A stretch of DNA of 46,129 nt from assembly GCF_004010195.1 (NCBI RefSeq), contig NC_057753.1:10970421-11016549 (forward strand), given 5' to 3'. Position numbers and translations under genes: made by a program. Positions 3,262-34,564 of this stretch are shown piece by piece. The notes below the pieces were generated by a model. That model did no database searches. It saw only the letters and a program-made list of their open reading frames with translations, and was not told the origin of the DNA. Origin of the DNA: Chiloscyllium plagiosum (lineage: Eukaryota). The first letter of the stretch is position 1, and the number at the start of each line of letters is the position of its first letter.

Positions 3262-4200
3262 ATGGAGAAAGCTGAGGAATCCCAACACATGGAGAAACCG
3301 TGGAAGTGTGGTGACTGCGGAAAAGGCTTCTGTGCCTGGAGATTCATTGGCGCAGTCACACTGGGGAGAGGTTGTTCTCCTGCCCCACGTGCAGGAAGAG
3401 TTTTACCCAGGCCTCCCACCTCGTAGCCCATAGCCGGGTCCACACAAGGGAGAGGCCGTTCTTCTGCCCCGAGTGCGGGAAGGGCTTCACCCACCCCTCC
3501 CGTCTTCATAGCCATCGGCATGTCCATACTGGGGAGATACCGTTCCCTTGCCCCAAGTGCGGGAAGGGCTTCAACAATTGCTCCAACTTGCTGAGGCACT
3601 AGCGGGTCCATATGGGGGAGAGGCCCTTCAGCTGCCCTGAGTGCGGGAAGGGCTTTACCCAAAACTCCACCCTTGTGACCCACCGGCGGGTCCACACGAG
3701 GGAGAGGCCTTTCAGTTGCCCTGAGTGCGGGAATAGCTTCACCCAGTCCTCTCATCTCCATAAGCACCGACGGATCCACACGGGCGAGAGGCCCTTCAGC
3801 TGTCCCGAGTGCAGTAAGGCATTCAGCAATTCCTCTGACCTGCTGAGGCACCAGCAGGTCCACACGGGGGAGAGGCCCTTCAGCTGCCCCGAGTGCGGGA
3901 AGGGCTTCACCTACTCCTCATACCTCCAGAAGCACCGATGGGTGCACACAGGCAAGAGGCCCTTCAGCTGCCCCGCGTGCAGGAAGGTGTTCAGCAGTTC
4001 CTCCGACCTGCAGAGGCACCAGCGGGTCCACAAGGGGAAGAGGCCTTTCCCCTGCCCTGAGTGCAGGAAGGCCTTCAGCAATTCCTCTGATCTGCTGAGG
4101 CATCAACGAGTCCACATGGGCTAGACGCCATTTGCCTGCCGCGAGTGCCAGTGGAGGTTCACATTGTCCTGCAATTTGCAGAGGCACCGATGGGGCACTA
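3262..4200 (+). pseudogene. C2H2 zinc-finger pseudogene, about 11 fingers
   Basis: [14 protein letters not shown] start, CxxC...HxxxH fingers with TGERPF linkers; frameshift near 3335, in-frame TAG at 3600-3602 and 4122-4124; candidate acceptor TTTTTACAG ending 2863. Confidence 0.9.
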
Positions 4201-16596: not shown

Positions 16597-17946
16597 ATGG
16601 AGAAACCGTGGAAATGTGGAGACTGTGGGAAGGAATTCAAATTCCCGTACTTGCTTGAGAGCCATCGCTGCCATCACACCGGGGAGAGACCATTCATCTG
16701 CCTCATGTGTGGGAAGGCATTCACTCAGTCCTCTGCCTTGCTGACCCACCAGCGGGTCCACACCAGGGAAAGGCCGTTCTCCTGCTCTGTCTGCGGGAAG
16801 CGCTTCAGCGATTCATCTGCCCTGCGGAGACACCGGTGGGTCCACACCGGGGAGAGGCCATTCTCCTGCTCCGTCTGTGGGAAGGCGTTCACCCAATCAC
16901 GCATCCTGCAGAGACACCAGCATGTCCACACCGGGGAGAGACCATTCACCTGCTCCATATGTGGGAAAGGCTTCATTGATTCATCTTCCCTGCTGACCCA
17001 CCAGCAGATTCACACCGGGGAGAGGCCATTCTCCTGCTCTGTTTGCGAGAAGGGATTCAGCTGTTCATCCGACCTGCACAAGCACCAGCGGATTCACACC
17101 GGGGAGAGGCCGTTCACCTGCTCTGTCTGTGGGAAAGGATTCAGCTTGTCATCCAACCTGTACAAGCACCGGCGGATTCACACCGGGGAGAGGCCATTCA
17201 CCTGCTCCGAGTGCGGGAAGGGATTCACCCATTCATCTGCACTGTGGAGACACCAGCGCGTCCACACCAAAGAGCGACCATTCTCCTGCTCCGTGTGCGG
17301 GAAGATGTTCAATAATTCATCCGTCCTGCAGAGGCATCAGCGTGTCCACACCGGGGAGAGGCCATTCTCCTGCTCCGTGTGTGGGAAGGGGTTCAATAAT
17401 TCATCCGTCCTGCAGAGGCATCAGCGCGTCCACACTGGGGAGAGGCCATTCTCCTGCTCAGTGTGTGGGAAGGGGTTTATTGATTCATCTTCCCTGTGGA
17501 AACACCAGCGGGTTCACATTGAGGAGAGGCCATTCTCCTGCTCCATGTGTGGGAAGGGGTTTATTGATTCATCTTCCCTGCAGAAACACCAACCTGTCCA
17601 CACCGGGGAGAGGCCATTCACCTGCTCGGAGTGTGGGAAAGGATTCGCTAATTCTTCTAACCTACTGACACACCAGCGGGTTCACACTGGGGAGAGACCA
17701 TTCATCTGTTCTGTGTGCGGGAAGGGATTCATTGATTCATCTTCCCTGCGGAAACACCAGCACATTCACACCGGGGAGTGGCCTTTCACATGCTCAGAGT
17801 GCGGGAAGGGATTCGCTAATTCCTCCAGCCTGCAGAGACACCAGCGGGTTCACACCGGGGAGAGGCCGTTCCTCTGCTCTCAGTGCGGGAAGGGATTTAG
17901 TCAGTCATCCCATCTGCTCAAACACCAATCCAGTCACACTGAGTAG
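16597..17946 (+). CDS. Intact C2H2 zinc-finger protein, 16 tandem fingers, no effector domain visible
   Basis: 449-aa ORF made almost wholly of 28-aa CxxC-x12-HxxxH units with TGERPF linkers; good start context GTCATGG; candidate acceptor TTCTTTTACAG ending 16257. Confidence 0.93.
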
Positions 17947-24177: not shown

Positions 24178-24750
24178 GGGTGGCACGGTGGCACAGTGCT
24201 TAGCACTGCTCCCTCACAGCGCCAGAGACCTGGGTTCAATTCCCGACTCAGGCAACTGTCTGTGTGGATTAGATTAGATTGATTAGATTAGATTACTTTA
24301 CAGTGTGGAAACAGGCCCTTCGGCCCAACAAGTCCACACCGACCCGCCGAAGCGCAACCCACCCATACCCCTACATTTACCCCTTACCTAACACTACGGG
24401 CAATTTAGCATAGCCAATTCACCTGACCTGCACATCTTTGGACTGTGGGAGGAAACCGGAGCACCCGGAGGAAACCCACGCAGACACGGGGAGAACGTGC
24501 AAACTCCACACAGTCAGAGTGTGGAGTTTGCACACTCTCCCCATGTCTGCGTGGGTTTTCTCCGGGTGCTCCGGTTTCCTCCCACAGTCCAAAGATGTGC
24601 AGGTCAGGTGAATTGGCTATGCTAAATTGCCCGTAGTGTTAGGTAAGGGGTAAATGTAGGGGTATGGGTGGGTTGCGCTTCGGCGGGTCGGTGTGGACTT
24701 GTTGGGCCGAAGGGCCTGTTTCCACACTGTAAAATAATCTAATCTAATCT
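24178..24750 (+). mobile_element. HE1 SINE containing an antisense HE1 copy (24269-24518)
   Basis: Host head with A/B boxes 24178-24268 resumes at 24519; GTGTGGA duplicated at 24262-24268 and 24519-24525. Confidence 0.92.
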
Positions 24751-30119: not shown

Positions 30120-30514
30120 TCACTTGTGAAATTGCTGGTGTCGCCACAAGTTGCACGACTGGGTGAAACCCTTCCCGCACACGGAGCAGGTGAACAGCCG
30201 CAGGGTGGAGGAATCACAGAAGCCTTTGTTGCACACGGAACAGGTCAACGTCTTCTCCCCAGTGTGGATCTGCTGGTGCAACAGTAGGTGGTCCGACTGA
30301 GTGAAGTCTTGCCCGCACAGGGGGCAGACGAACAGTTTCTCCATGGGGGGGGGATCCCACTGGTGGACCAGAAGGTGATGTGACTGCATGAAGCCTTTCC
30401 CGCACTGAGTGCAGGTAAACATCCGCTGTTGGTGTGCAAATGCCAAAAAATCTCCAGCGTAGACCGGGAAGGGAAACCATTCCCACACTCCCCCCATTGC
30501 CACGGCTTTTCCAT
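30120..30514 (-). pseudogene. Degenerate C2H2 zinc-finger pseudogene, about 5 fingers
   Basis: MEKPWQWGECGNGF start; [60 protein letters not shown]; frameshift, lost His residues and an internal deletion. Confidence 0.85.
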
Positions 30515-30704
30515 GGTGTGGCTGTCCTCGCGTCTGTGTGTGTGTGTGTGAGTATGTGGTTACTGGTGAACCTTCTGATAACTGGAACATACTCAGTCTG
30601 TAAAGCTTGTTCCAGTCACTACTCTGGTGTGTGGGTATGTGAGACTCTGAGTTTCCAGTCACACTGACGTTTAAAACCTAATGAAGCAGACAGACCGCCT
30701 CATC

Positions 30705-32225: not shown

Positions 32226-32564
32226 TGTGGAAGCTGTTTTGTTAGCCTGCTTGTCAGTTGCTGACCTGTTTGCAAAACCACCACCCAGGAAGCAGAGGCA
32301 GCTCTTTGCTTAGCTGGCTTCCTTACCTGCAGCCACCAGCTCAGCAGAGGTCAAAGCCACTTGCCTAGCAAAGCCCCAACCCAGGCAGATGGTATTAATG
32401 GGGGGGGGATGCAGTATCTGCAGTGTGCATTGACTCAAGGTCTGACAACAATAGCCCGTTAAAGATTGCTGATGGGCAGGGCATGCTGCAAGGGCCTTCC
32501 AGAAGAGAAAATAAACTCTGTTTTCACAGGGTTCCAAAATTATGTTCCACTCCAAAGGCATATC

Positions 32565-32817
32565 TGTGGCCTCCTTCTTTAAAGATCATAATTTCCCTTC
32601 CCACGTGGTTAAAGTTGGCCTTCAACGCATCTCATCCACATCCCCCACCTCTGCCCTAAGAACCCACCCCTCCCACTGCAACAAGGACAGAACGTCCCTG
32701 GTGCTCACCTTCCACCCTACCAACCTTTGCATAAACCGCATCATCTGCCGACATTTCCTCCACCTCCAAACGGACCTCACCACCAGGGATAGATTTCCCT
32801 CCCCACCCCTTTTCCGA
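32565..32817 (+). mobile_element. Penelope internal fragment at the site of the missing ERV RT core
   Basis: ASFFKDHNFPSHVV..SLVLTFHPTNL..IICRHFLHLQTD, matching the Penelope ORF at 43499-44035. Confidence 0.8.
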
Positions 32818-33547
32818 GGACAATGACAGAAAAACAAGTGGCAGTAGCAGGGAGGCTAGTAATGTTGATATTGGTGCCTGGCACCAGAGGGGAGCAGGGG
32901 ACAACGATGGCATTGACTGTCCTCAAGTCCGGCACAGATTTCCATTGTCCTGGTTTTCCTGGCTTAGGAATGGGGAGGATAGGAGTGTTGCAGGGCCTGG
33001 TGGAGCAAGATGCCTTGCTGTAGGTGGGAATCAATGACTGGTTTTATATCTCTACTGGCAAGTGACAAATTGTACTGTCTGATAGACGGTCGGATGGGCC
33101 CACATTTCGCAGTGACCGTATGAGCCAGAGCCAATATTACTAGGCCTGTGGCACTGGAGTGCTGTGCCCATAATGAAGGTGGCACATCGTTGAGCAATCG
33201 GGGCTGTCACAGGAGGGGAGGGTGACATCGACAGGGTTTGCAAGGTAAAGGAGGGAAAACAACACACACAAAAACTCCTCCTGGCCTAAGCAGGCAATCT
33301 GCATGGAGTCGGGCTCCACAGGGTCCAGGGGTTTAAATTCCTTTAGCAGACCGCCGAGTCTATGCACCATGGGCTCCAAATCCTTTGGGTACCAAGGGGC
33401 TTTAACTATGAAGGAAATATGAGGGAATGAGGTGGGGTTATTTCAGAAAAGCGTTCTTTGTTCAGCTTTGAGCAGAACTTCCACAGCTAATCCCTCCTTA
33501 CCAACGTAACACAGGCCAGTCAATGTCAGTGTAGAAACCAGATTGAG

Positions 33548-33635
33548 ATAAGGGTCTGTAATAGCGGAATAAGACGGGTCAGGTTCGTGAAATAAGGGTC
33601 TGTAATAGCGGAATAAGACGGGTCAGGTTCGTGAA
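33548..33635. repeat. 44-bp perfect tandem duplication that frameshifts ERV pol
   Basis: ATAAGGGTCTGTAATAGCGGAATAAGACGGGTCAGGTTCGTGAA at 33548 and 33592. Confidence 0.95.
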
Positions 33636-34091
33636 GGTAAGTTGCAGTGCAGTGAGGCTGGTCTGAACGATCCAGTGGGGGAGGGTGGTCATGGGAGGTG
33701 GAGGGGCATTCAACAAATGCAGCAGGGAAGAGGTCAGGACAAGCACGTACAGGGTTGCCCAGGAAAGTCCATGCGTAAAGGGAGGGAGTAGGAGAGGACA
33801 AAGGCAGAAAAGTGGCCACAGCAACCAGCAAAAGGGAGTAATTAGAGTCAGGGCGTTCCAAGGTGAGGCCCTGTGGAGAGCAGTGAATGGAAGCGTTCAG
33901 TTTGCAGACAGTCTGTCGACCGAGAAGGGTAAATGGACAAAAAGGGGAGATTATAACAGTGTTTGTAGTTTTTTTTAGAAGCTGCTGGAGTTTTGAAGAA
34001 GAAGTTACCTTTTCCCTCTCTCAGCTAGGAAATTCATTCCACTTTAAACTGGTGTGGGATAGTGTTCAAGTAACAACCAAAACTCACTGAG

Positions 34092-34421
34092 TGGCGAAAA
34101 TAGCCTCTTTGTTCAGCAATCACAGCACAAGGTCGAGGTGGTGATGGACCCTCGAAATACAGTTCTTACAGGAGCCCCTTTATACACAGTTCTTGCATAT
34201 CATTACTATAGTGTTACATTTTTAATCTGTAGTACACAAAGGTTTGAAGGGTTTCTGGCGAAAATAGCCTCTTTGTTCAGCAATCACAGCACAAGGTCGA
34301 GGTGGTGATGGACCCTCGAAATACAGTTCTTACAGGAGCCCCTTTATACACAGTTCTTGCATATCATTACTATAGTGTTACATTTTTAATCTGTAGTACA
34401 CAAAGGTTTGAAGGGTTTCTG
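34092..34421. repeat. 164-bp perfect tandem duplication inside the LTR
   Basis: Unit TGGCGAAAATAGCCTC...GAAGGGTTTC at 34092 and 34256. Confidence 0.95.
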
Positions 34422-34564
34422 TCCTGGGAGACAGGAGATGGGTTAAACGTGTGTGTTAACTGCTGGCTGCTATTCCTGATGGGATGTTTGTCCAGCCAGC
34501 TTGCATAATTAGAGGTGTTAGTTCTCCTGTCTTTTAAATTAGTAATTGTTAGTAAAAATACTAA

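Follow-up and report, generated by a model that had tools for sequence, protein, structure and literature searches.

A predicted CNPase-like 2H phosphoesterase domain between protease and reverse transcriptase in shark endogenous retroviruses, some of which have lost its catalytic motifs

A domain for which a CNPase-like 2H phosphoesterase fold is predicted lies between the protease and the reverse transcriptase (RT) of endogenous retroviruses (ERVs) of the bamboo shark Chiloscyllium plagiosum. It was found in the window, a stretch of 46,129 nucleotides, and was followed through further copies in the same genome and through viral relatives in other hosts. That bony-fish retroviruses carry a CNPase-like domain is known already; what is new here is a younger shark lineage in which the domain is under selection, and shark lineages in which it has lost its catalytic motifs and is still constrained.

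The features of the window are collected in Table 1. The original prediction, which was made from the window alone, had placed the motifs H-C-T and H-I-S, the in-frame stop and the 44-bp duplication at the positions given there. All four were confirmed, including the exactness of the duplication. It had confined the feature to 33360–33700; the domain does lie there, but it extends wider (Table 1). The bare motif is common, with 73 H-hydrophobic-S/T-hydrophobic sites in the 92,254 six-frame codons of the window. Since the motif alone is not rare, the case for the domain rests on homology, and this case is strong.

Table 1. Features of the ERV remnant and its surroundings in the window
Feature	Positions	Strand	Basis
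ERV RNase H region fragment, 117 nt	32450–32566	minus	aligns with the RNase H-encoding segment in L024 and in nine more copies
Foreign repeat at the deletion point within pol	32567–32812	n/a	copy alignment
RT N-terminal part, frameshifted, cut off	32816–33191	minus	tblastn and copy alignment
CNPase-like 2H phosphoesterase domain (predicted), indels and stop inside	33200–33783, ends approximate	minus	homology, profile, fold
Second catalytic motif H-x-S (H-I-S)	33413–33421	minus	sequence and profile register with CNPase
In-frame stop	33443–33445	minus	sequence and alignment to other copies
Exact tandem duplication, 2 x 44 nt, frame-breaking	33548–33635	n/a	0 mismatches
First catalytic motif H-x-T (H-C-T)	33646–33654	minus	sequence and profile register with CNPase
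Out-of-register stretch between two small cancelling indels	33661–33738	minus	alignment to other copies
First domain strand (Tyr-x-Trp), aligned to the first strand of CNPase	33769–33783	minus	
Protease C-terminal tail; remaining protease and gag absent from the copy	33858–33962	minus	tblastn with sawshark, salamander and perch proteins
Separate repeat, high-copy, which includes a tandem duplication of 164 nt (34092–34421)	34092–34563	n/a	

The window copy has H-C-T and H-I-S in two different frames. Where the duplication is absent, as in the natural copies L003 and L007, one frame holds both motifs, 63 codons apart. The duplication is private to the window copy in pairwise alignment with 14 other copies: the near paralog L023 has a gap of exactly 44 nt at this point, and 12 of the 13 remaining copies have a gap of about the same size. 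The single minus-strand frame that had been predicted after removal of one duplicate stands as far as the two motifs are concerned. Chance plays a part in keeping the frame open between the protease tail and the first His: small indels near 33738 and 33661 cancel, so that ~26 codons 5' of this His are read in another register than in the other copies. More indels lie from 33280 to 33199, and at one position where 9 viral lineages and 102 CNPases all agree, the window copy differs from its family. Where the window copy has its stop, 5 of the 14 other copies have a stop as well, 8 have a sense codon and 1 has a gap. With its indels, its stop and its private duplication, the window copy is dead several times over, as had been predicted.

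Retroviral homology in the window spans 33962 to 32816 and takes in the tail of the protease, the domain and the start of RT. Homology to the 14 other copies stops at ~33962, and the family profile matches XMRV protease. By homology search, the window keeps only three ERV fragments. The predicted context, a slot between protease and RT in the pol of a shark ERV, is supported; one CNPase exon of the host is 100% identical to a Chiloscyllium plagiosum record, which makes the host a bamboo shark. The foreign repeat at the deletion point gave no match in Pfam, and we take it to be Penelope-like. The repeat at 34256–34563 was considered as the LTR of the window's ERV family and rejected: the high-copy repeat of which it is a part is absent beside 13 of the 14 other copies, so it is probably not the family LTR.

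A paralog ~295 kb away has its junctions and its downstream flank in common with the window copy, and its domain is 96% identical (242/251 sites). The ERV remnant was thus duplicated together with host DNA. The same junction between foreign high-copy repeat and protease tail was seen at three loci (window 33963–34563; L002; L012/L049); two of these represent a local duplication. The third, located on a different contig, gives a hint that a chimeric, deleted element was copied. The remnant lies inside a zinc-finger gene cluster, with C2H2 zinc-finger arrays at 3357–4148, 16674–17927 and 30123–30677 of the window. Elsewhere in the window, 24281–24749 is a near-perfect inverted repeat (231-nt arms, 98% complementary, 7 nt spacing) built from a repeat that is common in the shark. 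Exact or near-exact two-copy tandem duplications are present at 1891–2234 (172 nt), 34092–34421 (164 nt) and 33548–33635 (44 nt), and some of them could be assembly artefacts.

The link between the domain and CNPase was detected by profile–profile and structure comparison only. Pfam, run on pieces of the window and on intact copies, gave no match over cut-off to a 2H family or to PF05881, and searches of PDB sequences, by a single copy and by the family profile, returned a protease match only and no CNPase chain. When a CNPase profile was run against the viral proteins, the best score was 8.6 bits (controls ≤2.4). The family profile gave a probability of 6.6% against a single host CNPase exon. 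Profile against profile, with 109 CNPase domains, the probability was 93% (E 3.5e-7, score 50) with both His in register, while 40 shuffled controls reached at most 19 and the reversed control 14.

Structures were compared for natural homologues, from sawshark and hake, in place of the window copy. The Atlas model of the sawshark domain had CNPase as its best match, with TM 0.78 over 165 residues, followed by the cyclic phosphodiesterase (CPD) of tRNA ligase; its TM to AKAP7/LigT-type clusters was 0.46–0.47. The model of the hake domain is of modest confidence (pLDDT 62.6, rmsd 4.6), and only CNPase/RICH appeared among the Foldseek matches listed for it (best E 5e-6). Its Z-scores were 12.3 for CNPase (156 residues), 8.8 for fungal tRNA ligase, 5.8 for MHV ns2, 5.2 for an archaeal ligase-like protein and 5.0 for Acb1. 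A 111-residue fragment of the window's family from the shark's own genome, which is without the first and last strands, was modelled at pLDDT 55 and reached a best Z of 2.7. In the hake model the helix that follows the second motif (residues 207–216, pLDDT ~85–90) is the counterpart of CNPase helix 7, which is described as missing from other 2H enzymes (PMC4643303); the alignment with CNPase is ungapped there and takes in the invariant Gly. Both H-x-S/T-hydrophobic motifs that characterise the 2H superfamily were found in one frame in L003, in L007 and in 8 database or genome lineages.

The profile and the models predict a CNPase-like 2H phosphoesterase fold, in agreement with the original prediction, which had named CNPase as the closest likeness. 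Could the His pair instead have arisen by chance in a decayed linker that holds no 2H domain? The commonness of the motif, the lack of a Pfam or PDB sequence match and the failure of the 111-residue fragment model to match anything would suit such a chance origin. However, the profile, two independent structure models and conservation across vertebrate classes all indicate CNPase, so that a chance origin is effectively refuted and its remaining probability is negligible.

Copies in the shark genome were collected by a DNA search (43 matches from 34 candidates) and by a protein search (150 scored matches of 472 candidates, down to ~30% identity). One open natural copy was also run against 1.84 billion proteins and gave 14 matches; 12 of these could be aligned with the domain, and the other 2 were noise from low-complexity sequence. 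The query used to collect homologues itself carried the His, so motif conservation is biased upward. Across its copies the window's family carries zf-CCHC, RVP, RVT_1, RNase_H, rve and TLV_coat in retroviral order; its nearest homologues are fish and amphibian ERVs. The element is provisionally placed as an epsilon-like endogenous retrovirus. Relatives with a named host are those of bamboo shark, sawshark, salamander, perch, hake and polar cod. In sawshark, salamander, perch and hake, and in copies of the same genome, the domain is found between protease and RT; L062, L063 and P0011 carry protease, domain and RT in a single open frame. The best viral fold matches include proteins of walleye WEHV1 and WDSV, at high rmsd and with the protease tail within the query. 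The 78 open frames scanned from the (partial) ERV copies of this genome contained no macro domain, a word-based homologue search of longer proteins gave none, and a scan of IMG/VR with the sawshark protein gave no match.

A younger shark lineage (L060–L064; e.g. L063:566–2083) is 50% identical to a perch ERV in the domain and 64% in the RT start, compared with 29% and 31% to the window's family. Such perch-like sequences may reflect movement of virus between bony and cartilaginous fish.

In a tree of the domain, ten viral domains fell on one side of a branch and 18 CNPases, from hagfish to mammals, on the other (support 100/98). None of the viral domains fell inside the shark CNPases; the tree is unrooted and its branches are long. 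The pairwise identities of domain and RT showed no correlation (rho 0.07, 7 lineages). We infer that a CNPase-like host gene was captured once, long ago, minus its N-terminal P-loop domain. With the tree unrooted, its branches long and the domain and RT identities uncorrelated, such a single capture is no more than a plausible fit.

Epsilon-like fish ERVs are reported to encode CNPase occasionally (PMC4977317, citing Basta et al. 2009), and 2H domains are listed in fish retroviruses and WDSV (PMC9503650, citing Mazumder et al. 2002), which bears out the statement in the original prediction that 2H domains have been noted in some fish retroviral polyproteins. The cases described there have in common with ours an epsilon-like retrovirus and a CNPase-like 2H domain, and the perch and hake domains align over the whole core. 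They differ in that the host here is a cartilaginous fish, with a salamander as well, and in that the available text of PMC9503650 and PMC4977317 gives no pol position, shark case, motif loss or assay. The domain is not mentioned in the available text of a paper on elephant shark ERVs (PMC4422223). A literature search, which covered main texts and few subscription papers, gave no shark case, motif loss or functional test; cases from sharks or without the motifs may be listed in the supplements of Basta 2009 and PMC9503650.

The active site was compared with that of CNPase using the residue numbering of the mouse enzyme (PMC4643303). Over 8 lineages of 20–49% identity, 11 of 104 columns are invariant, and these include both His and the first Thr. 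The Phe235 position is aromatic in 7 of 9 lineages, and a Gly at His2+15 is present in 9/9 viral lineages and 102/102 CNPases. Arg307 is retained in none of the 9 lineages; Val321 is likewise kept in none, and its position holds Lys or Arg in 8. The Tyr168 position aligns ambiguously. The two His are 61–63 residues apart in the viral domains versus 79–84 in CNPase, which brings the motifs ~20 residues closer. In CNPase the Thr/Ser of the motifs are essential, and R307Q and V321A raise KM and leave kcat unchanged (PMC4643303). Because these two substitutions raise KM and keep kcat, the changes in the viral pocket would point to another substrate preference and not to loss of activity.

Compared with vertebrate CNPase and fish RICH (PF05881; PDB 1woj, 9eru and 2i3e), the viral domain has in common the predicted fold, both motifs in register, the Ser before motif 2, the Gly that opens helix 7 and, in most lineages, the aromatic residue of Phe235. 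It differs in its low identity (~17%), in the residues at Arg307 and Val321 and in the His spacing. Furthermore, the P-loop domain and the C-terminal prenylation tail of CNPase are absent, and protease and RT flank the domain instead. The fungal tRNA ligase CPD (PF08302; PDB 6u05), which works on cyclic-ended RNA, is the second-best fold (Z 8.8; Atlas feature hits 0.95), but it is a weaker match than CNPase and belongs to an RNA repair enzyme with kinase and ligase. Coronavirus ns2/NS4b, rotavirus VP3, AKAP7 and phage Acb1 are of the same superfamily, and those of the VP3, ns2 and Acb1 type are also virus-borne. However, they represent another branch of the fold (Z 5.0–5.8, TM <0.5), and they cut 2'-5' links or cyclic oligonucleotides.

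On these comparisons we lean slightly towards the view that the domain originally did the chemistry of CNPase, with nucleotides or RNA ends that bear cyclic phosphates as its substrates. Judged by its predicted fold, a domain with intact motifs would likely open 2',3'-cyclic phosphates, whether on nucleotides or at the ends of RNA, to give 2'-phosphates. Being made as part of Gag-Pol, it would be packaged, and it would probably be freed by the protease. It might then clear cyclic-phosphate RNA ends left by host nucleases, which act as danger signals; cyclic-ended RNA stimulates RIG-I/MDA5, NLRP3 and TLR8 (PMC8406329). Host CNP blocks HIV-1 Gag assembly by means of a P-loop residue and prenylation (PMC10761555, PMC7471995). 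Since the virus is without the P-loop and prenylation parts, this assembly-blocking function is not what was taken.

Destruction of an immune messenger, either 2-5A or a cyclic dinucleotide, in the manner of coronavirus ns2, rotavirus VP3 and phage Acb1, we consider quite unlikely. Other viruses do use 2H domains in this way (PMC8406329, PMC9503650). The shark genome has a cluster of ~three OAS-family genes (G000:C25:15317927-15378388; L038, L040, L041), a basic residue in place of Val321 could accommodate a second phosphate, and loss of the motifs in lineages that spread through the germ line would fit a role confined to infection. Nevertheless, ns2, Acb1 and the AKAP7-like folds all scored below CNPase in the structure comparisons above. 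A search for RNase L in the shark genome gave no clear candidate; only two KEN-domain loci were found (a lower bound), both of which we take to be IRE1-like. The domain is also retained in viruses of teleosts, hosts that are not known to have OAS–RNase L, although searches brought no confirmation of its absence. In addition, the 2-5A enzymes create cyclic ends and do not open them (PMC8406329). Antagonism of the ns2/VP3 type, which the original prediction had raised, is thus not the leading reading, as the domain groups with CNPase and the fungal tRNA-ligase CPD, far from ns2, AKAP7 and LigT.

A part in reverse transcription, by which cyclic-ended primer tRNA or genome fragments would be given 3'-OH ends for RT, seems very unlikely. 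The domain is fused beside RT and would be packaged with it, the CNPase reaction leaves a 3'-OH and a 2'-phosphate (PMC4643303), and the next-best structural relative is a tRNA-ligase CPD. However, the motif-less shark lineages described below kept diversifying. Mature tRNA already ends in 3'-OH, and most retroviruses replicate without such a domain.

Selection on the domain was measured as dN/dS; the intervals are bootstraps over codons, and the pairs are not independent. In the younger, perch-like shark lineage (5 copies) the domain is under purifying selection as strong as that on RT, with dN/dS of 0.16 (0.10–0.26) for the domain and 0.16 for RT, compared with 0.65 and 1.54 in the shifted frames. 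No selection signal was seen for the domain in the window's family (0.56–0.59, versus 0.62–0.80 in shifted frames), and its RT, RNase H and integrase were likewise without signal in dN/dS and transversion tests. Since no pol region of the family carries a signal, its divergence is mostly decay after insertion. The two His are retained in 13/15 and 12/15 of its copies, about as neutral decay would leave them.

The original prediction had named as counter-evidence other ERV copies that do not conserve both His motifs, and such copies were found in part. The motifs are kept in the younger shark lineage and in the fish and salamander relatives, but many related shark ERVs do not have both. In 37 further loci of this genome, taken from the protein-search list for long frames or mid-range identity, both His are present in 22 and both full motifs in only 5 (4/5 young loci, 1/32 others); among 20 loci, 5 had no readable domain frame, of which 2 were scored later and 3 stand outside all counts. 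A quick tree built without the motif columns (support 92, 88 and 96) placed the older shark copies in two clades, one with 19 members and one with 21. The intact motif pair is found in 0/19 of the first clade, 12 of which have Pro at the second S/T site; the date of loss within this clade is placed by inference. The clade of 21 includes the window's family and a group of 5 in which Tyr replaces both His (L067, L072, L076, L093 and record P0001). This Tyr/Tyr group is shared with Chiloscyllium punctatum and also has Pro at the second S/T site.

For 16 copies of the motif-less clade of 19, dN/dS was 0.31 (0.25–0.38) in frame-blind alignments, with a third-position transversion excess of 1.66 (1.27–2.10). 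In 8 motif-less loci the domain gave 0.25 versus 0.28 for RT, with synonymous sites near saturation. The Tyr/Tyr group alone gave a weak signal, 0.54 (0.32–0.89). By these sequence measures, at least two older shark sub-lineages have lost the catalytic motifs, the larger of them still being under purifying selection. As the clade of 19 is constrained without intact motifs, catalysis is not what preserves the domain there. Part of the constraint in the motif-less lineages may be the mere need to fold inside the polyprotein; they are likely a pseudo-enzyme offshoot.

The same lineages raise the question of whether the main job of the domain is non-catalytic, with the CNPase fold used as an RNA- or nucleotide-binding module or as a folded spacer of Gag-Pol and catalysis as an optional leftover. 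Loss of the motif pair throughout one clade and, separately, in the Tyr/Tyr group speaks for this, as does constraint on copies without the Thr/Ser that CNPase needs (PMC4643303). On the other hand, the sawshark, salamander, perch, hake and younger shark lineages keep the catalytic set at ~20–50% identity, any polyprotein domain is constrained just to stay folded, and both the near-saturation of synonymous sites and the weak Tyr/Tyr signal temper the dN/dS values. We regard a mainly non-catalytic job as improbable, though worth serious consideration. Beside the favoured CNPase-type chemistry, an RNA-binding or structural role likely runs in parallel, since at least two shark sub-lineages lost activity while the fold stayed constrained; catalysis thus appears dispensable in some settings.

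A more far-reaching scenario, possible but on balance doubtful, starts from host CNPase, which is induced by interferon and itself blocks retroviral assembly. Retroviruses of fish, sharks and amphibians would have acquired its catalytic domain and adapted the pocket to RNA ends; in sharks the domain would have become, on at least two occasions, a conserved pseudo-enzyme that binds and does not cut.

The window copy itself is an ordinary dead one. If the scenario is true, a captured host enzyme would hold both a catalytic and a non-catalytic job inside Pol, where extra enzymes are rare. A CNPase-derived domain in viruses of sharks, bony fish and salamanders, selected like RT in one lineage, would point to a so far unstudied step by which retroviruses handle RNA or evade immunity. 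The presence of motif-intact and motif-less lineages within one genome makes the question directly testable, and this pairing may help with the question, still unsettled, of what CNPase acts on physiologically.
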